Source of the DNA: Clostridia bacterium
GTDB lineage: Bacteria > Bacillota > Clostridia > Oscillospirales > CAG-272
NCBI GenBank assembly: GCA_017508605.1
Contig: JAFVYN010000175.1
Coordinates: forward strand, 1 to 49,149
Direction: 5' to 3'
DNA: 49,149 bases
Shown here: positions 8,766 through 37,533 of the stretch, piece by piece
Layout: each line of letters begins with the position of its first letter
Position numbering within the stretch: the stretch's first letter is position 1
Notes under the pieces: generated by a model
The model's database searches: none
What the model was told of the DNA's origin: nothing
The model's input: only the letters and a program-made list of their open reading frames with translations
Program-made: the position numbers and the translations under genes

Positions 8766-8780
8766 CGGTAGGTGAACGCT

Positions 8781-9869
8781 ATGAGTAATTTTGAAGAATT
8801 TGAACTGGATTCACGCCTTCTCGCTCCCGAGGAGACGGGGGAGGACAGTGACGAGGGCGCGGAATTTTCGCTCCGTCCCCAGCGCCTTACCGAATACATC
8901 GGACAAAGCCGCGCGAAGGAGAATCTTTCGGTCTATATCGAAGCTGCCAAGAGCCGCCGCGACGTGCTTGACCATGTGCTGTTATACGGTCCTCCCGGTC
9001 TCGGTAAGACCACGCTTTCCAATATCATCGCCAACGAAATGAACGTGTCGATCCGTGTGACCTCGGGTCCCGCCATCGAAAAGCCCGGCGATCTTGTGGC
9101 GCTTCTCACCAATATGGCGGAAAACGATATTCTCTTCATCGACGAGATCCACCGTATGTCCCGCGCGGTCGAAGAGGTGCTGTACCCCGCCATGGAGGAC
9201 TATGAGATTGATATCATCATCGGCAAGGGTCCCGCGGCGAGATCGTTCCGCATGAAGCTTCCGAAATTCACCCTGATCGGCGCGACGACGCGCGCGGGTC
9301 AGCTTTCCCAGCCGCTTCGCGACCGCTTCGGCGTTCTTCTGAAGCTGGAGCTGTACTCCCCCGAGGAGCTTTACGAGATCGTCAAGCGCTCGGCGGGTAT
9401 TATGAATTACGAGATCACCCGTGACGGTGCGATGAAGATCGCCGCCTGCAGCCGCGGTACGCCCCGTATCGCCAACCGCCTACTGAAGCGCGTCAGAGAC
9501 TTCGCGCAGGTCAAGGGTACAGGCGTGATCGACGAGGAGATCGCGACCTACGCTCTCCGTCAGCTTGAGATCGACCATCTCGGTCTTGACAGCGTGGACA
9601 GACGCATGCTCGAGACCATCATTACGCTCTATCACGGCGGTCCCGTCGGTCTTGAAACGCTTGCCGTCACCATCGGCGAGGAGGCGGTGACCATCGAGGA
9701 CGTGTACGAGCCATACCTCATCCGTATCGGCTTTATCGCGCGTACCTCACGGGGCAGATGCGCGACCCGTCTTGCCTACGATCACCTTGGCATCCCCTTC
9801 CCGAAGCAGTCCGGCGCAGGCACAGTCGCAGCGCAGACCGGCATGTTTGACGGTGAGGAAGAGTCGTAA
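8781..9869 (+). CDS. ruvB: Holliday junction branch migration helicase RuvB
   Basis: [42 protein letters not shown]; start could also be GTG 8772. Confidence 0.97.
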
Positions 9870-9977
9870 AAAATCGAAAGATCTTGTTTTTCCGTTTTTC
9901 GGAATCGCCCTCTCACCCTTCGGGAGAGGTGGCGGCGCCGGGGAGGATAGGGTAACCGAAGCAGGCAACCGGAACGG

Positions 9978-10082
9978 GTGACTAAGCGAGATCATTCAGT
10001 TAAAGTAAATTCTCATGCTTGACAGAAAGCCCTCTCACCCGCTGCGCGGGAGCTCTCCCGTGGGGAGAGCCTTGGGTTAGCG
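9978..10082. repeat. Repeat A copy 1 (105 bp)
   Basis: GTGACTAAGCGAGATCATT...CTTGACAGAAAGCCCTCTCACCCGCTGCGCGGGAGCTCTCCCGTGGGGAGAGCCTTGGGTTAGCG. Confidence 0.95.
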
Positions 10083-10137
10083 ATCGCGGCCGGATACAAG
10101 CTTCATTGATATAGTACAGAAGTGAATATGTTTTCAT

Positions 10138-10203
10138 GATCAATCGGACAGTAATGGAGCCTCTCCCCACGGGAGAGGTGGCGGCGTAGCCGACGGAGAG
10201 GGC
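10138..10203. repeat. Repeat B copy 1 (66 bp), approximately the reverse complement of the A core
   Basis: GATCAATCGGACAGTAATGGAGCCTCTCCCCACGGGAGAGGTGGCGGCGTAGCCGACGGAGAGGGC; ends 3 nt before the DUF559 ATG. Confidence 0.95.
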
Positions 10204-10206
10204 GCA

Positions 10207-10625
10207 ATGGAAAAGATTCAGGTGAAGAAGAATTACGATTTATTAAATATTGCTAAAATATTGCGTCGCAATATGACACCGCAAGAAAAACATTTGTGGT
10301 ATGATTTCCTGAAAAACTATCCGATCAAGATTTACAAGCAACGCATTATAGACAATTTTATCGCGGATTTTTACTGTTACCGAGCGCGCCTTGTTATTGA
10401 AATTGATGGATTGCAGCATTACACCAAAAAGGAATATCTCATGATGAGGCAAGAACCGAGGCAATGAAAAAATACGGTTTGAAAGTAATACGGTTCTCTA
10501 ATGAAGATGTTGATAAACGATTCTATACTGTATGCTGTGAAATAGATATGAAGATCCAAGAAAGAATCAATGAATTGACCGCCTTTCGTAACGTGAATAA
10601 CATTGCCGGCGAAAAGAGTGACTAA
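10207..10625 (+). pseudogene. DUF559 / Vsr-like endonuclease domain protein with a -1 frameshift at A5 (10426-10430)
   Basis: Frame 1 gives LRRNMTPQEKHLW...FIADFYC...LVIEIDGLQH. The frame from 10431 gives GISHDEARTEAMKKYGLKVIRFSNEDVDKRFYTVCCEID...SD*, the typical DUF559 C-terminus. Markedly AT-rich compared with its neighbours. Confidence 0.85.
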
Positions 10626-10722
10626 GCGAGATCATTTAGTAAAAGTAAATTCTCATGCTTGACAGAAAGCTCTCTCACCCGCTACGCGGGAGCTCTCCCG
10701 TGGGGAGAGCCTTGGGTTAGCG
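10618..10722. repeat. Repeat A copy 2; contains the DUF559 stop codon
   Basis: Near-identical to 9978-10082 at an offset of 640 bp. Confidence 0.95.
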
Positions 10723-10776
10723 CCGGCGATTGAACAGGGATGCAGATATGACAAGCAAAAGCCAATCAGCCCGAAC

Positions 10777-10842
10777 GATCAATCGGACAGTAATTGAGCC
10801 TCTCCCCACGGGAGAGGTGGCGGCGCAGCCGACGGAGAGGGC
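10777..10842. repeat. Repeat B copy 2
   Basis: Matches 10138-10203 with 2 substitutions. Confidence 0.95.
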
Positions 10843-10879
10843 AACCGAAGCAGGTAACCGAAGCGGTCAACCGGAACGG

Positions 10880-10975
10880 GTGACTAAGCGAGATCATTTA
10901 GTTAAAGTGAATTCTCATGCTTGACAGAAAGCCCTCTCACCCGCTGCGCGGGAGCTCTCCCGTGGGGAGAGCCTT
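10880..10975. repeat. Repeat A copy 3
   Basis: Near-identical to A1 and A2 up to ...GGGGAGAGCCTT. Confidence 0.95.
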
Positions 10976-11233
10976 TGGTACAGATCTTTATTGAGCGTGG
11001 CACGTTTTTGATTGGAATTAAAATAAAAGGGTATTGGATTAAAGATGTGAAAGAGTGTTGGCACGTGTCGGCATTGTGCTTCACATTGGATATGAAAAGT
11101 TATTGAAAGGATGCAGGAATCTTTTTCGTTGTCTTGAAACATAAAACAGACATCGTCCCGAAGGGTTTTGAAAGGGCGCGAGAAAACTTTTTTCAAAATT
11201 TTTCTCGCAAAAAGTTTCCGCGCGGAAGAACGT

Positions 11234-12100
11234 ATGTATATTGCAGATAAATGGACAGAGTATAAGCTGATCGATGCCGATGACGGTAAGCGGCTTGAGG
11301 ACTGGGCGGGGCATGTTCTTGTGCGCCCCGATCCGCAGATCATCTGGAAGGAATGCGCCAAAAGTCCCCTTTGGAAGCGTGCCGACGCGGTGTATAAACG
11401 CTCGAAATCGGGGGGCGGCGCGTGGACGCAGTTCAAAAAGCTGCCCGAGGAATGGGAGCTTTCTTATGAATCTCTCGGGCTTCGCTTCGTTGTCAAGCCG
11501 ATGGGCTTCAAGCACACGGGCGTTTTTCCCGAGCAGGCGGCGAACTGGGAATGGTTTTCTCACTTGATCCGCGATGCCAAAAGACCCATCAAGGTGCTGA
11601 ATCTCTTTGCCTATACCGGCGGCGCGACGATCGCGGCGGCAAAGGCGGGGGCTTCGGTGGTACACGTGGACGCTTCGCAGGGCATGAACCGTCAGGCGCA
11701 GAAAAATGCCGAGCTTTCGGGTCTTTCCTCGGCGCCCATCCGCTATATCACCGATGACTGCGCCAAATTCGTACAGCGCGAGATCCGTCGGGGCAACCGT
11801 TACGATGCCATCATTATGGATCCTCCCTCTTACGGACGGGGTACGTCGGGCGAATTATGGAAGTTGGAGGATATGATCTTCGATTTCGTCAAAATGACGT
11901 CGGAGCTTTTGTCGGATCAGCCCCTCTTTTTCCTCATCAATTCTTACACGACCGGACTTTCGCCCTCCACGATGGGCTGTATTCTCTCGCTCGCTCTGAA
12001 GGAGCGCGGGGGCAATGTGGCGTGTGACGAGGTCGGCCTTCCCATCGGAGACGGCAGGATCTGTCTCCCCTGCGGCGCGGCGGCAAGAATGACATTCTGA
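11234..12100 (+). CDS. Class I SAM-dependent methyltransferase (RlmI/RlmK-like)
   Basis: FKHTGVFPEQAANW, VLNLFAYTGG, HVDAS, IMDPPSYGRG; start moved to ATG 11234. Confidence 0.88.
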   Translation: MYIADKWTEYKLIDADDGKRLEDWAGHVLVRPDPQIIWKECAKSPLWKRADAVYKRSKSGGGAWTQFKKLPEEWELSYESLGLRFVVKPMGFKHTGVFPEQAANWEWFSHLIRDAKRPIKVLNLFAYTGGATIAAAKAGASVVHVDASQGMNRQAQKNAELSGLSSAPIRYITDDCAKFVQREIRRGNRYDAIIMDPPSYGRGTSGELWKLEDMIFDFVKMTSELLSDQPLFFLINSYTTGLSPSTMGCILSLALKERGGNVACDEVGLPIGDGRICLPCGAAARMTF

Positions 12101-15841: not shown

Positions 15842-17044
15842 ATGAAAAAGACAGGCGTGATCTATCATAACGGATATTACCGCGTTGCCCGTCGGCTGGG
15901 AGTGGTCAGATATCTGACACTTTTCGTGCTTATGGTGTTTTCGCTGACCCTCTTTTTTGCCTTTCGTCAGGATATGACGCTCGATCATTTCCGTTATCTC
16001 CTTCGCAATTTTGACTTTACGCCGAATGCCTCGTCCACATCGGGGGACACTATTCACTACAACGGCGATCCCGACGCGACCTTCGGCTTTGTTTCGGGAG
16101 GCTTTGCGACCGTGACCGACACCCGTGTGTTTGTGACCGACCGCTCGTCCTCCACCACCTTTTCGGCATATCACGGCTACCGTGAGCCGAGAGGGGTCTT
16201 TTCGGACACCTATATGCTCTTATACGATCGGGGCGGCTCGGAGCTTTCGGTCTACAACGCCTTTTCGCTGATCAAGAGCTTTTCTTACGAGGGCACGGTC
16301 ATTGCCGCCGCGGCGGCGGATGACGGGACCTTCGCCGTTGCCGTGACACCATCTGACGGCTATTATTCGGTGGTGTACGTTTACGATCGGCAAATGAAGT
16401 GTGTCAACACGATTTCCAAATACAAATACCTGACCTCGCTTTCGCTTTCACGCGACGGCTCGACCCTTCTGGTGGGCAGCCGCTATCCCTCGGAAAGCGG
16501 TGCGGAGGCATATGAGCTTCTGACCCTTGAGGTCGGCAGTAAAACGCCGACTGTCAGTCTGACGCTGTCGAAGACGGTCTATGCCGCCGCTCTGAGTGGA
16601 TCGGGCGGGATCATGGTACTGACAGAAGACGAGGTGCAATTTTATGCCGAGGACGGCAGTCTTCTTTCTGCCTTTGCGACCGAGGGCGCGCCGCGGAAGA
16701 GCAGCTTTACCAAGGAAGGGGTACTGCTTGTCACAAGCGGTGCTGACGGGCGTGAGGAACGTCTTGCCTATGTGACCCCAGCGGGCAAAACGCTTTACAG
16801 CCTGCCCTGTCGTGCCGTATCCTTCGGCGAGGATGACAAGCGCCTCTACTGTCTTCTTGAAAATTCGCTGGCTGTGATCGACAAAGAGACAGGTGTCTTT
16901 ACCGAAACGGCGGTAGACGTCAGCGAGGCGATCGCCCTTGTCAACGACGTTGAGCGTGTCTATCTTGCCTCGGCTGACCTTGCCGAGAGGCTGGATCACA
17001 AGGCGCTCGGTGAGAAAAATTCACAAACCGACACAGAACGCTAA
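15842..17044 (+). CDS. Membrane-anchored beta-propeller-like protein (DUF5711-like)
   Basis: One N-terminal TM helix followed by beta-rich repeats (YMLLYDRGG); lies upstream of the CvpA gene; family call is by recollection. Confidence 0.6.
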   Translation: MKKTGVIYHNGYYRVARRLGVVRYLTLFVLMVFSLTLFFAFRQDMTLDHFRYLLRNFDFTPNASSTSGDTIHYNGDPDATFGFVSGGFATVTDTRVFVTDRSSSTTFSAYHGYREPRGVFSDTYMLLYDRGGSELSVYNAFSLIKSFSYEGTVIAAAAADDGTFAVAVTPSDGYYSVVYVYDRQMKCVNTISKYKYLTSLSLSRDGSTLLVGSRYPSESGAEAYELLTLEVGSKTPTVSLTLSKTVYAAALSGSGGIMVLTEDEVQFYAEDGSLLSAFATEGAPRKSSFTKEGVLLVTSGADGREERLAYVTPAGKTLYSLPCRAVSFGEDDKRLYCLLENSLAVIDKETGVFTETAVDVSEAIALVNDVERVYLASADLAERLDHKALGEKNSQTDTER

Positions 17045-23521: not shown

Positions 23522-23621
23522 TCGCACCGCACCCGTCGGATCTCTCCGACACCAATCACTGCCGAACACGGCAAAACATTTAATTTTAAAAAATATTTAA
23601 ACTATTTTGGAGGATATGAAA

Positions 23622-36714: not shown

Positions 36715-37533
36715 ATGTTCATTCCGATCTTAACTGCATTTCTGGTGGTCGTGGCGGTCGGTCTTGTCGCTTCGATCCTCTTATCCCTGGTATCCCGCTA
36801 TTTCGGTGTGGAAAAAGACCACAGAGAAGCCGAGCTTCGTGCCATTTTGCCCGGTGTCAACTGCGGTGCCTGCGGCTTCAAGGGCTGTGACGATTACGCC
36901 AAAGCGCTGGCAAACGGCACTGCCAAGCCCAATCTCTGTACCCCCGGCGCGGCGGCTGTTGCCGAAGAGCTGGCACAGTATCTCGGCGTTGAACCCGAAG
37001 TGCCGAAGGATGTGGTTGCCTTCGTGCATTGCAACGGCAACTGCGAGGTCGCAAAGCTCGATTATCAGTATGACGGCATTCACTCCTGCTCGGCGGCAAA
37101 CGCCATGTACGGCGGACAGTTTCTCTGCAAATTCGGCTGTCTCGGCTTTGGCGACTGCGCCAACGCCTGCCCGAACGATGCCATCTGCATTGATGACGGC
37201 ATTGCGCACGTTGATACCTCGCGCTGTCTCGGTTGCGGCATCTGTGCCGCGGCATGTCCCAAAAAGATCATCACCATGGTGCCCCAGGAGGCGCGCACGG
37301 TCGTGATGTGCCGAAATCACGATAAGGGTGCTGACGCGCGTAAGGCCTGTGCCAACGCCTGCATCGGCTGTCACAAATGCGAAAAGAACTGTCCCGTCGG
37401 GGCGATCAAGGTGCAGAATAATCTGGCAATCATTGATTATGAGATCTGTACCTATTGCGGCAAATGTGCCGAGGTGTGCCCGACGCACTGCATCAAGGAA
37501 GTGTATTTCCCCGATCTCGGAGAAAAAGCATGA
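36715..37533 (+). CDS. rnfB: Rnf complex subunit B
   Basis: LPGVNCGACGFKGC and several CxxCxxCxxxCP ferredoxin motifs. Confidence 0.95.
   Translation: MFIPILTAFLVVVAVGLVASILLSLVSRYFGVEKDHREAELRAILPGVNCGACGFKGCDDYAKALANGTAKPNLCTPGAAAVAEELAQYLGVEPEVPKDVVAFVHCNGNCEVAKLDYQYDGIHSCSAANAMYGGQFLCKFGCLGFGDCANACPNDAICIDDGIAHVDTSRCLGCGICAAACPKKIITMVPQEARTVVMCRNHDKGADARKACANACIGCHKCEKNCPVGAIKVQNNLAIIDYEICTYCGKCAEVCPTHCIKEVYFPDLGEKA

Follow-up and report, generated by a model that had tools for sequence, protein, structure and literature searches.

A DUF559 nuclease gene carried between inverted triplex-type repeat modules in Clostridia

Why should a gene for a small nuclease-like protein lie inside an ordered array of inverted hairpin repeats, between two housekeeping genes of a Clostridia bacterium? 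DUF559 (PF04480), the domain encoded by this gene, is widespread in bacteria and to our knowledge has no assigned role; likewise, we know of no function, origin or mobiliser for the BoxC/PIT/triplex-motif repeats, which have been catalogued since the 1990s. The physical and phyletic link between DUF559 and such repeats described below merges these two open questions into one hypothesis that can be tested at the bench. The locus lies in a stretch of 49,149 nucleotides (hereafter, the window) of the genome designated G000.

The interval is bounded upstream by ruvB (8772–9869, forward strand; Pfam RuvB_N, AAA_lid_4 and RuvB_C), orthologues of which were present in 10 of 10 same-genus genomes, and downstream by a SAM-dependent methyltransferase gene of the PF10672 type (11234–12100, forward strand; Pfam). 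The Pfam check of neighbours covered these two genes and agreed with a preliminary description of the locus, which had called them housekeeping genes. Between them lie three head-to-head B-A repeat doublets with the DUF559 gene inside the middle one, and repeat mapping reproduced the element order proposed in that description, B0-A1-B1-[gene]-A2-B2-A3, with B0 degenerate. B0 (9907–9941, forward strand, direct-repeat family D4) is a weak match to R1, a covariance model trained on DUF559-flanking modules (8.2 bits, E 0.76). It is followed by the linker of the gene-less B0-A1 unit (9942–9976, with a 13-nt AACCG motif, repeat family D3) and by A1 (9977–10077, reverse strand, reference copy of family D1), which consists of a 52-nt AT-rich leader and a reverse-oriented module (10029–10072, R1 18.8 bits; 10032–10070 by the triplex-motif finder). 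B1 (10138–10205, forward strand, family D2) comprises a leader and a module (10158–10205, R1 35.4 bits, E 4.5e-11; 10160–10202 by the triplex-motif finder) and precedes the DUF559 gene (10207–10625, forward strand). A2 (10617–10717, reverse strand, D1 copy), whose leader holds the DUF559 stop codon, contains a reverse-oriented module at 10669–10712 (R1 18.4 bits). The last doublet consists of B2 (10777–10842, forward strand, D2 copy with 97% identity; leader and module, the latter at 10797–10842, R1 32.8 bits, E 4.3e-10), a gene-less linker (10843–10878) that resembles the B0-A1 linker by repeat comparison, and A3 (10879–10979, reverse strand, D1 copy with 96% identity; leader and module, the latter at 10931–10974, R1 18.8 bits). 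The AT-rich sequence from 10980 to 11233, which reaches the methyltransferase start, is the rest of a 1.36-kb insertion, as seen by comparison with genomes G001, G002, G004 and G007.

Repeat A spans about 127 nt (9951–10077, 10591–10717 and 10853–10979; 83–96% ungapped identity to the reference copy), and repeat B 66 nt (10138–10203 and 10777–10842, 97% identity). In an R1 search over 107 kb, A1, A2 and A3 were each found at about E 1e-4, and a generic triplex-motif finder placed all six motifs of the window within 10032–11000 and none in the reversed window. The repeat array is not due to chance. The tight fit of gene and repeats was also as first described: the ATG at 10207 follows closely on the end of repeat B1 at 10203, while the stop codon, TAA at 10623–10625, falls within the first 9 nt of the conserved part of A2. 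The G-rich third block of B1, 4 nt 5' of the ATG, probably serves as the ribosome-binding site. The gene-less units B0-A1 and B2-A3 are present as proposed, and derivation of their linkers from the gene did not hold up: the local alignment score of 15 was reached by 161 and 188 of 500 shuffles. Thus, "gene replaced by linker" is a purely descriptive phrase.

In the assembly of the window, the gene is split into two frames near an A-run at 10426–10430. All three of the DNA runs compared, which come from three studies, show an extra A behind position 10425 at full depth; it restores the frame, and the same-genus orthologue in G005 is in frame at this position. The frameshift is therefore not general, the A-run being 1 nt shorter in this assembly, and, since other samples carry intact alleles, the frame repair that had been thought necessary is not needed. 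An RNA run covered only the modules and one diverged 45-nt stretch, without evidence of gene expression. Pfam DUF559 was matched by the N-terminal part at 60.7 bits (E 1.5e-16; cutoff 20.6 bits) and by the C-terminal part at 25.3 bits; in the scan for other domains, DUF559 was the only match on the 86-aa N-terminal part and the 53-aa C-terminal part had none. The intact allele encodes about 139 aa, the DUF559 proteins compared here having 115–140 aa. Catalytic residues D54, E65, D67 and H71 are invariant among 17 sequences and D80 is nearly so; the window protein retains the first four, all of which precede the frameshift.

The closest solved structure is 3hrl, a DUF559 protein of Neisseria gonorrhoeae (E 1.4e-25), which, like E. 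coli YcjD, belongs to the same family as the window protein, and neither has an assigned function. NCBIfam PRK09767 was matched at 72–74 bits, below its 218-bit cutoff. Caulobacter VsrA shares the fold superfamily, contains a DUF559 domain and causes DNA damage in vivo (PMC12907096). Vsr itself is different in that Pfam assigns DUF559 here, with no Vsr-family match, and that no cytosine-5 methyltransferase partner accompanies the gene. A weak match (E 0.0015, 21.4 bits) was obtained with the homing endonuclease I-Bth0305I (3r3p), which likewise has a Vsr-like domain with E-D-x-H-D residues and is encoded by a selfish element spreading by break repair (PMC3239194). However, I-Bth0305I carries an N-terminal NUMOD/HTH region and resides in an intron of a phage gene, whereas the DUF559 proteins considered here are free-standing and encoded intergenically within repeats. 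Membership of a known defence system was also considered and set aside because PADLOC returned only weak nuclease-domain likenesses (mREase_II, DpdF, HEase).

Each module consists of a C-rich/G-rich hairpin 1, a hairpin 2 and a G-rich block that mirrors the 3' arm of hairpin 1. In an alignment fitted to the model, changes on both sides were seen in 13 of 14 pairs across both hairpins, and paired cells amounted to 94.8%, against 75.8% in shuffles and 49–68% in slid controls. Among 208 distinct modules, identity between the third block and the 3' arm of hairpin 1 was 0.76 when mirrored (0.649 ± 0.006 in shuffles) and 0.67 when direct, and the closing base covaried, with 51 G-G and 46 C-T combinations (97 of 106 in total). 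Searching for the third block as an exact copy of the arm recovered only a minority of the modules, owing to its mirrored rather than directly repeated sequence. Loop 2 is itself a hairpin; it measures 13–16 nt in the window, and relatives have lengths of up to about 30 nt. The modules are dispersed and mostly intergenic, as gene-less singles or inverted doublets, so that the gene-less copies of the preliminary description do exist, and nested insertions were seen among them. In one doublet element of about 170 nt in genome G012, the left module matches the module upstream of a DUF559 gene with 98% identity over 51 nt; the 15 aligned copies of this element have AT-rich inverted ends, TAAATTA...TAATTTA, at which a clear target duplication could not be called.

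On their sequence, the repeats are a long-loop variant of the BoxC/PIT/intrastrand triplex motif and not a new kind. As described in the main-text passages of Holder et al. (2015, PMC4666352), BoxC/PIT/TMECO repeats have C-rich, G-rich and mirrored G-rich blocks and are intergenic, multi-copy and often arranged as inverted pairs; for TMECO, a promoter or terminator role is not known there, and the authors never found transposases or integrases nearby. The window modules share the three-block plan, the dispersal, the inverted pairs and the lack of mobility genes nearby. However, loop 2 has 3 nt in those repeats, whereas in Clostridia it is a covarying hairpin of 15–30 nt, and since loops in the published ITxF/TMECO search were limited to 1–6 nt, the long-loop variant falls outside that search. 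A link between DUF559 and the repeats does not appear in these main-text passages, the flanking genes being given in Supplementary Table S2, outside their scope. A search by title, abstract and passages, with subscription journals and supplements outside its scope, found no literature that makes this connection.

Gene and modules recur together. An R1 module was found within ~150 nt of an ORF end in 69 of 80 DUF559 genes but in only 10 of 170 control ORFs from the same loci, and 136 of 185 R1 modules lay in the corresponding 8% of locus sequence (15 expected); neither these nor the other association figures for this group are independent samples, because the genomes compared share ancestry, DUF559-flanking modules served to train R1, and the 80 loci represent the highest-scoring relatives within one DUF559 subfamily. 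An untrained triplex-motif finder gave a motif at an ORF end in 72 of the 80 genes, mostly in inverted pairs. Of its 263 motifs, 184 lay close to an ORF end (21.5 expected); the reversed-sequence control yielded 19 motifs, none of them near. The orientation was inverted in 34 of 35 flanked pairs, being forward upstream and reverse downstream in 30, the opposite in 4 and the same in 1. Thus, the gene within inverted modules is a recurrent unit, the B-gene-A cassette that had been proposed from the window.

Co-occurrence extended to whole genomes. A full DUF559 was present in 13 of 41 related genomes, and every one of these 13 holds from 8 to at least 146 R1 modules; the six DUF559-positive genomes outside the R1 training contain 17, 14, 9, 146, 8 and 29. 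The 28 genomes without a full DUF559 include 15 with no module and 4 with at least 8; G013, G022 and G023, in which DUF559 was not detected, are motif-rich (16, 16 and 11, respectively). With several motif-rich genomes in which DUF559 went undetected, a strict dependence of repeat on enzyme is not established. In the following cases the hairpin type matches that flanking the DUF559 gene of the same genome: for CTCTCCC, 17 hairpins were counted in G000 and 12 in G005; for CTTCCCC, 87 in G020, 28 in G012 and 26 in G027; and for CTCCCTC, 34 in G012 and 7 in G036. Exceptions to this match with lineage are G022 and G027, the latter having 29 CTCCCTC hairpins and no DUF559 flanked by CTCCCTC. On a 79-sequence protein tree, upstream module class required 16 changes, compared with 32.5 when shuffled (minimum 29), and downstream module class 25, compared with 46.3. 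On this evidence repeat type tracks the DUF559 clade, with exceptions, and both the enrichment and the co-phylogeny that the preliminary description had proposed to look for were found.

Similar arrangements were detected beyond Clostridia. In Sphingomonas, pntAA and pntAB are separated by a cassette that has the same module architecture on either side, and triplex-type motifs also occur near DUF559 in Sinorhizobium, Deinococcus, Picosynechococcus, N. gonorrhoeae and at E. coli ycjD. In Chloroflexota, a motif was present within 250 nt in 20 of 30 loci (19 of 29 without locus L167 of the unpublished genome G081), and 41 of 76 motifs lay near DUF559, compared with 11.8 expected; the control gave 10 motifs, none near. 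At least five motifs of the same pattern were found in 7 of 23 DUF559-positive Chloroflexota genomes (6 of 22 without G081) and in 6 of 38 negative ones, negative meaning no DUF559 at E <= 1e-10 in genomes whose completeness is not given; motif counts reached 66 in G078, 42 in G068, 23 in G091, and 22 each in G088 and G103 among the negatives. Short-loop forms adjoin DUF559 in Chloroflexota and in E. coli, where a BoxC copy lies ~170 nt downstream of the DUF559 gene ycjD. The sapF-fabI site is occupied by ycjD in some cases and by the eef efflux operon in others (PMC12817139). TMECO copies per E. coli chromosome were 23 and 11 with ycjD and 3 and 11 without it, and no conclusion is drawn on ycjD and TMECO number because only four chromosomes were compared and phylogroup is confounded.

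What, then, could hold gene and repeats together? It is quite possible, if somewhat short of probable, that they form a selfish cassette, in which the nuclease recognises and nicks or cuts its own modules and repair spreads them, a REPIN/RAYT-like logic with homing-endonuclease chemistry. Such a cassette would be compact, with the gene for the ~139-aa EDxHD nuclease carried between two inverted modules, each predicted to fold into hairpin 1, hairpin 2 and the mirrored G block, that is, a BoxC/PIT-type triplex motif whose second loop holds a hairpin. The upstream module would give the ribosome-binding site and the downstream module the stop codon, and gene-less modules, single or in inverted doublets, would be non-autonomous family members. 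The nuclease might recognise its own module type, either as an extruded hairpin or triplex or as an inverted doublet, and nick or cut there; recombinational repair among copies would then maintain and spread the modules and keep the gene inside a doublet. Host recombination is assumed because a PD-(D/E)XK nuclease alone is incapable of strand transfer. Both the binding or cutting of the modules by the protein and a role of this activity in spreading them are inferred. If true, a non-HUH structure-recognising nuclease would join the short list of bacterial enzyme-repeat partnerships.

The likeness to REP/REPIN-RAYT systems, as these are treated in the passages of Di Nocera et al. cited here (PMC3733652), lies in a nuclease gene present in one or a few copies and flanked by inverted hairpin repeats, and in a repeat that is dispersed as singlets or inverted doublets and matches the gene in type. 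The RAYT enzyme is, however, an HUH Y1 transposase (PF01797) in place of a PD-(D/E)XK EDxHD nuclease, and its repeats bear a GTAG tag, whereas a triplex-type mirror block and a looser-looking dependence on the gene are found here; no GTAG-type tetranucleotide beside a palindrome was seen in the module alignments. The candidate RAYT/REPIN-like system put forward in the preliminary description stands as regards co-occurrence, type matching and inverted flanks, and not as regards a strict enzyme-repeat dependence. A pair of MITE and autonomous IS is different again, as the full-length copy in the window has no transposase of a known family; by ORF and Pfam scan, DUF559 alone lies between the modules.

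A doubtful but serious alternative is that the repeats arise and spread without DUF559, by slippage, recombination or another enzyme, and that the gene encodes a small selfish or restriction-like nuclease and is a passenger or parasite surviving inside doublets, which would be recombination-prone and neutral and supply it with a ribosome-binding site and a stop codon, so that gene and flanks travel together. The nuclease would then have a different DNA target, such as the mismatches or unmethylated sites suggested in the case of Caulobacter VsrA. Such a reading accommodates the many motifs in genomes of relatives, E. coli and Chloroflexota where DUF559 went undetected, and the congruence with the protein tree could come from co-inheritance alone. 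It also agrees with the unusual rearrangement of triplex-motif loci in E. coli reported in the passages on local instability (PMC4666352), and with the SOS response that, in the cited part of the VsrA study (PMC12907096), the Caulobacter DUF559 protein causes when the cytosine methyltransferase is missing. On the other hand, a mere passenger would not account readily for modules that seldom flank other genes, an inverted orientation that is nearly fixed, a matching module type in tens of copies where the gene is present, and the same architecture from Bacillota to Alphaproteobacteria.

The distribution of the insertion bears on a further reading, that DUF559 is a host genome-maintenance nuclease which processes repeat hairpins or triplexes at replication forks and is encoded beside its substrates. 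According to Holder et al. (PMC4666352), triplexes formed by this repeat class are stable in vitro and the repeats are associated with instability at their loci; moreover, a genome that has DUF559 usually has one copy or a few. Against this, the gene is patchy within the genus (3 of 9 other members) and AT-rich, as had been remarked at the outset (GC 0.35–0.37, compared with 0.55–0.61 in ruvB), occupies different sites in different species and has close homologues of 54–59% identity in other phyla (L034, Megasphaera; L037, Desulfovibrionaceae; L041, Brevefilum). Because of these four properties, a mobile element fits better than a host function, which we consider improbable. Empty ruvB-methyltransferase sites, which the preliminary description had proposed to look for, were found in G001, G002, G004 and G007, where only about 10–30 nt separate the ruvB stop from the methyltransferase ATG; the same-genus comparison thus gave empty junctions as well as a shared insertion, and in relatives without the cassette the methyltransferase directly follows ruvB. 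Such empty alleles of the insertion site are a likeness to homing endonuclease genes. Contig joints skipping 483–609 nt were considered as possible excision products and rejected; they carry 15–37 other nucleotides in between or have short sides, and look like other repeat loci or organisms.

It is very unlikely that the association is one of RNA, with the modules as structured 5' and 3' untranslated regions of the DUF559 mRNA and the dispersed copies as unrelated terminators: the covarying hairpins and the resemblance of the third block 5' of the ATG to a Shine-Dalgarno site are as expected, but modules are found in either orientation, in gene-less inverted doublets and with insertions nested among them, their copy numbers run from tens to above 100, purine-motif triplexes are reported not to arise in RNA (PMC4666352), and an Rfam scan of 9800–11300 gave only a chance microRNA match (E 0.065, far under the gathering score). 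Least credible of all is that DUF559 plays no part and that the repeats are mobilised by a classical RAYT/IS200 transposase encoded in the third of the genome missing from the assembly. G000 is indeed only 64.55% complete, but no Y1_Tnp was found in it, nor at E <= 0.001 in the near-complete relatives richest in repeats, G012 (124 modules, 98% complete), G020 (146, 97%) and G027 (90, 98%), while genomes with strong Y1 matches, such as G026, G034 and G037, hold 0–1 modules. Y1/RAYT transposases do not track the repeats. Neither an absence of DUF559-repeat association nor repeats following a RAYT/IS200 gene, the outcomes named beforehand as speaking against the proposal, appeared in the sequence data.

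Extending the selfish-cassette reading, one may speculate, with more doubt than confidence, that DUF559 is the long-missing partner enzyme of BoxC/PIT/triplex-type repeats across bacteria, each clade co-evolving with its own type. This would amount to a second, chemically distinct partnership of the REPIN/RAYT kind, in which a PD-(D/E)XK nuclease would read and cut DNA folded otherwise than in B form, as a hairpin joined to a purine-motif triplex, and leave host recombination to copy the repeats. Tentative examples would be ycjD with BoxC, and the rhizobial, sphingomonad, cyanobacterial, Deinococcus and Clostridial modules. The hypothesis could be tested within E. coli K-12, which has ycjD and the 23 TMECO copies.

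Some minor features of the modules were also observed. On the reverse strand, hairpin 2 often has CGTC at its start and CCA at its end. These ends resemble the "CGTC-tagged REPs" which, in the passages of Di Nocera et al. (PMC3733652) that deal with them, lack a dedicated transposase; the Sphingomonas modules do not have the tag. Metagenome assemblies break at the modules, many copies of which lie at contig ends, and modules were found mistranslated into the termini of annotated DUF559 proteins.

The 1.36 kb between ruvB (8772-9869) and the gene for a PF10672-type SAM methyltransferase (11234-12100) is occupied by repeats and one small gene. Repeat finding and alignments placed ~127-nt A copies at 9951-10077, 10591-10717 and 10853-10979, 66-nt B copies at 10138-10203 and 10777-10842, and a degenerate B (B0) at 9907-9941, in agreement with the repeat map of the preliminary description. 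Its proposals of a tightly bounded cassette and an AT-rich gene were also confirmed: 3 nt separate the end of B1 from the ATG (10207), the TAA (10623-10625) lies inside the first bases of A2, and GC content is 0.35-0.37 in the small gene versus 0.55-0.61 in ruvB. From these positions and bounds, the locus reads as three head-to-head B-A units, with the gene in the middle one. The linkers of the gene-less units had no detectable derivation from this gene. In these linkers (9942-9976 and 10843-10878) a 13-nt AACCGAAGCAGGT-like motif occurs one to three times; they are similar to each other and unlike the gene.

In the same-genus comparison, the cassette at this junction was common to the window's genome (G000) and G005 only. 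The gap from the ruvB stop codon to the ATG of the methyltransferase gene was 10-30 nt in G001, G002, G004 and G007 and 150-290 nt in G006 and G009. G003 had a different insert of ~450 nt (L106, G003:C5, 2094-2540) with a ~58-aa Cys-rich ORF and no modules. The insertion is polymorphic, and this junction is an insertion hot spot.

The small gene encodes a DUF559 protein (PF04480, 60.7 bits) split over two frames. We aligned contigs of three DNA runs, from three studies, to window positions 9700-11400; in all three an extra A was present behind 10425 at full depth, and the gene was otherwise identical. In addition, the orthologue in G005, which occupies the same position after ruvB, is open across the frameshift position. 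The frameshift is not general, the five-A run in the window stems either from misassembly or from a mutation in the strain, and an intact protein of ~139 aa occurs naturally. A 17-sequence profile matched 3hrl, the structure of a DUF559 protein of unknown function from N. gonorrhoeae (E 1.4e-25), and 3r3p, from the homing endonuclease I-Bth0305I (catalytic domain; E 0.0015). D54, E65, D67 and H71 were invariant in the 17-sequence alignment; their counterpart is the EDxHD motif described for the I-Bth0305I family in the available part of PMC3239194. PADLOC and NCBIfam scans added nothing specific for this protein. A DUF559 protein of Caulobacter is reported to trigger a DNA-damage response upon deletion of a solitary cytosine methyltransferase (PMC12907096).

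Each module consists of hairpin 1 (C-rich/G-rich stem of 8 bp, loop of 3-5 nt), one to three bases, hairpin 2 with a variable stem, and a G-rich third block. R1, a covariance model trained on DUF559-flanking modules, recovered the window copies (E 4.5e-11 to 1e-4). In an alignment of 77 R1 matches from 21 sources, which was fitted to the model, two-sided changes occurred in 13 of 14 base pairs, and 94.8% of cells paired versus 75.8% in shuffles and 49-68% with slid partners. Weak R1 matches elsewhere in the window, at 16290-16328 (+), 23526-23573 (-) and 36953-37015 (+) (E 0.0065-0.65), may be decayed modules or chance. The third block is a mirror image, not a direct copy, of the 3' arm of hairpin 1: in 208 distinct modules the best identity was 0.76 mirrored versus 0.67 direct, with 0.649 +/- 0.006 in shuffled pairings. 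Closing bases covaried, G with G in 51 and C with T in 46 of 106 cases. The combination of C block, G block and mirrored G block is the definition of the "intrastrand triplex motifs" (BoxC, PIT elements, TMECO) in the available text of PMC4666352. This paper counts 3610 TMECO copies over 262 genomes of proteobacteria, describes in vitro triplex formation and more local rearrangement at TMECO than at control sites, and reports that TMECO have no promoter or terminator role and lack transposase or integrase remnants in their neighborhoods. Loops were restricted to 1-6 nt in the search described there, which would have missed a motif with a hairpin as its second loop. Its mirror-block architecture and hairpin second loop make the window repeat a long-loop variant of this known, unexplained class.

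The nuclease gene and inverted triplex-type modules form a recurrent unit. Among 40 relatives, we inspected 21 DUF559 hits in 13 genomes by eye, and nearly all had a module of this architecture immediately ahead of the start codon, across the stop codon or at both places, with differing stem sequences. A second, non-random sample comprised the best 80 of 579 confirmed relatives in a species-genome collection, mostly from Clostridia and of one subfamily. In it a module lay no more than ~150 nt from an ORF end for 69 of 80 DUF559 genes versus 10 of 170 other ORFs of the same loci, and 136 of 185 modules fell in 8% of the sequence, where 15 were expected. Flanking pairs were oriented up+/down- in 30 of 35 cases, -/+ in four and the same way in one. 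An untrained triplex-motif finder detected the motif at 72 of the 80 genes and placed 184 of 263 motifs near an ORF end (21.5 expected); the reversed sequences of these loci gave 19 motifs, none near an ORF end. The link between DUF559 and modules is general.

Similar arrangements were found in other phyla. A protein search of a plasmid collection gave 45 records, of which six were picked by choice, a non-random set. In Sphingomonas (L136, plasmid NZ_CP155755.1, 520-975), a DUF559 cassette lies between pntAA and pntAB, inside the transhydrogenase operon, with inverted hairpin 1-hairpin 2-mirror-block modules on both sides; the annotated ORF extends through both of them. Just downstream of the Sinorhizobium DUF559 gene lies an inverted doublet with this architecture, and C/G hairpin-plus-G-block motifs flank the gene on one side or on both in Deinococcus, Picosynechococcus and N. 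gonorrhoeae. The finder returned zero motifs at the Azospirillum locus, where C-rich hairpins are visible by eye. The E. coli DUF559 gene, ycjD, lies between sapF and fabI in 3375 of 5426 complete genomes, with a BoxC/TMECO copy ~170 nt downstream; in both of two other genomes examined an efflux operon took its place (cf. the available part of PMC12817139). In a K-12-type genome (NZ_CP062240.1), 10 of 23 TMECO copies formed five inverted pairs 20-60 nt apart (e.g., 161034/161085, 620035/620098 and 3039348/3039412), the same doublet habit as in Clostridial genomes. DUF559 occurred at E <= 1e-10 in 23 of 61 Chloroflexota genomes, and a triplex motif lay within 250 nt of it at 20 of 30 loci (19 of 29 without L167, from the unpublished genome G081). 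Near DUF559 were 41 of 76 motifs (11.8 expected), compared with none of 10 in the control. The second loop was short and BoxC-like in most of these Chloroflexota motifs and a hairpin in a few; the presence of both forms ties the Clostridial variant to classical BoxC.

Full DUF559 was present in 13 of 41 related genomes, all of them with 8 to 146 or more R1 modules; the six outside R1 training had 17, 14, 9, 146, 8 and 29. Among the 28 genomes without full DUF559, 15 had zero modules and four had at least 8 (G013 and G022, 16 each; G023, 11; G016, 8). Counts per hairpin type were as follows: CTCTCCC in G000 (17) and G005 (12), CTTCCCC in G020 (87), G012 (28), G027 (26) and G001 (9), and CTCCCTC in G012 (34), G002 (12) and G036 (7). 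Each of these genomes has a DUF559 gene flanked by its abundant type, in G001 and G002 by a close variant (CCTTCTCC, CCTCCCTT), and the two DUF559 clades of G012 each have their own type beside them. Gene-less copies of the matching type occur in the same genomes; the exceptions, with no matching DUF559 gene, are CTCCCTC in G027 (29 copies) and CTTCCCC in G022 (8). A ~170-nt G012 element, present in many near-identical copies, has two inverted modules and AT-rich inverted ends, and its left module shares 98% identity over 51 nt with the upstream module of one DUF559 gene. In a 79-protein tree, the class of the upstream module required 16 changes versus 32.5 in shuffles (minimum 29) and the downstream class 25 versus 46.3 (minimum 42); the two classes were concordant in 32 of 44 cases. 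This congruence reflects gene and flanks travelling and diverging together and is not proof of recognition, because kin share labels. The reversed control pattern, in which the G arm precedes the C arm (GAGAGGG...CCCTCTC), had 32 matches per strand in G030 alone, which has no DUF559 hit; this is a different hairpin family.

The reading we favor, tentatively and from sequence comparisons, is action of the DUF559 nuclease on modules of its own type, after which break repair would maintain and spread modules together with the gene. Such a system would resemble REPIN/RAYT in logic and a homing endonuclease in chemistry. The main rival, possible but rather unlikely, is that the repeats spread by themselves and harbor DUF559 as a selfish or restriction-like passenger. 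Strict dependence of repeats on the enzyme is weighed against by the linker result and by counts in two groups. In several Chloroflexota genomes without DUF559 at E <= 1e-10, CCTCTCC-type motifs were abundant (G078, 66; G068, 42; G091, 23; G088 and G103, 22 each). At least five copies were present in 7 of 23 DUF559-positive genomes (6 of 22 without G081) versus 6 of 38 negative ones, and any copy in 14 of 23 versus 10 of 38, completeness not being given. E. coli chromosomes had 23 and 11 TMECO copies (two ycjD-positive) versus 3 and 11 (two ycjD-negative).

It is improbable that DUF559 is a host maintenance nuclease: DUF559 genes of other species lie at other genome positions. That the modules are RNA elements is very improbable. 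A RAYT in the unassembled part of G000 is the least credible reading: the assembled part has no Y1/RAYT, Y1/RAYT-type transposases do not follow modules (none at E <= 0.001 in G012, G020 and G027, each 97-98% complete, with 124, 146 and 90 modules; strong Y1 matches in G026, G034 and G037, among others, with 0-1 modules), and no RAYT accompanies the unit. Full-text searches of the literature outside subscription journals and supplementary files (such as the flanking-gene table of PMC4666352) found no report linking DUF559, ycjD or COG2852 with BoxC, PIT, triplex or other dispersed repeats.

G000 is a MAG of 1.99 Mb in 177 contigs (64.55% complete), of which the window is contig C139. It has 17 R1 modules, 17 exact copies of the 7-3-7 hairpin (26 with one mismatch allowed) and 57 generic motifs versus 19 in reversed sequence. 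Module copies occur on at least 11 further contigs, frequently at contig ends and together with other repeats, and the intergenic repeats are mosaics. At five loci (C45:7380-7480, C171:1-100, C11:1-100, C36:1-60 and C105:7400-7520) an insert of ~100 nt separates the two arms of hairpin 1, as if another small element had become nested in the module. A second, composite repeat (~250 nt), with a long GC hairpin (CCTTGTGTCAGCGCT...AGCGCTGACACAAGG) and a AAAAAGGTC palindrome, accompanies modules at many loci and contig ends (C105:6750-7650, C105:15250-15559, C111:1-400, C111:10750-11150, C11, C24, C92, C158, C5 and C45). Modules of a second family, whose stem is of the CTCCCTT type that flanks DUF559 of G002 (L007), form inverted doublets at contig ends (C5:10742-10887 and C99:6-126); no matching DUF559 was found in the assembled 64% of the genome. 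In G005 (L105, G005:C83, reverse strand), ~90-210 nt downstream of ruvB, a 20-nt piece comprising the C block and half of hairpin 2 of the A module is repeated in five tandem copies followed by a complete module, which suggests slippage at the structure.
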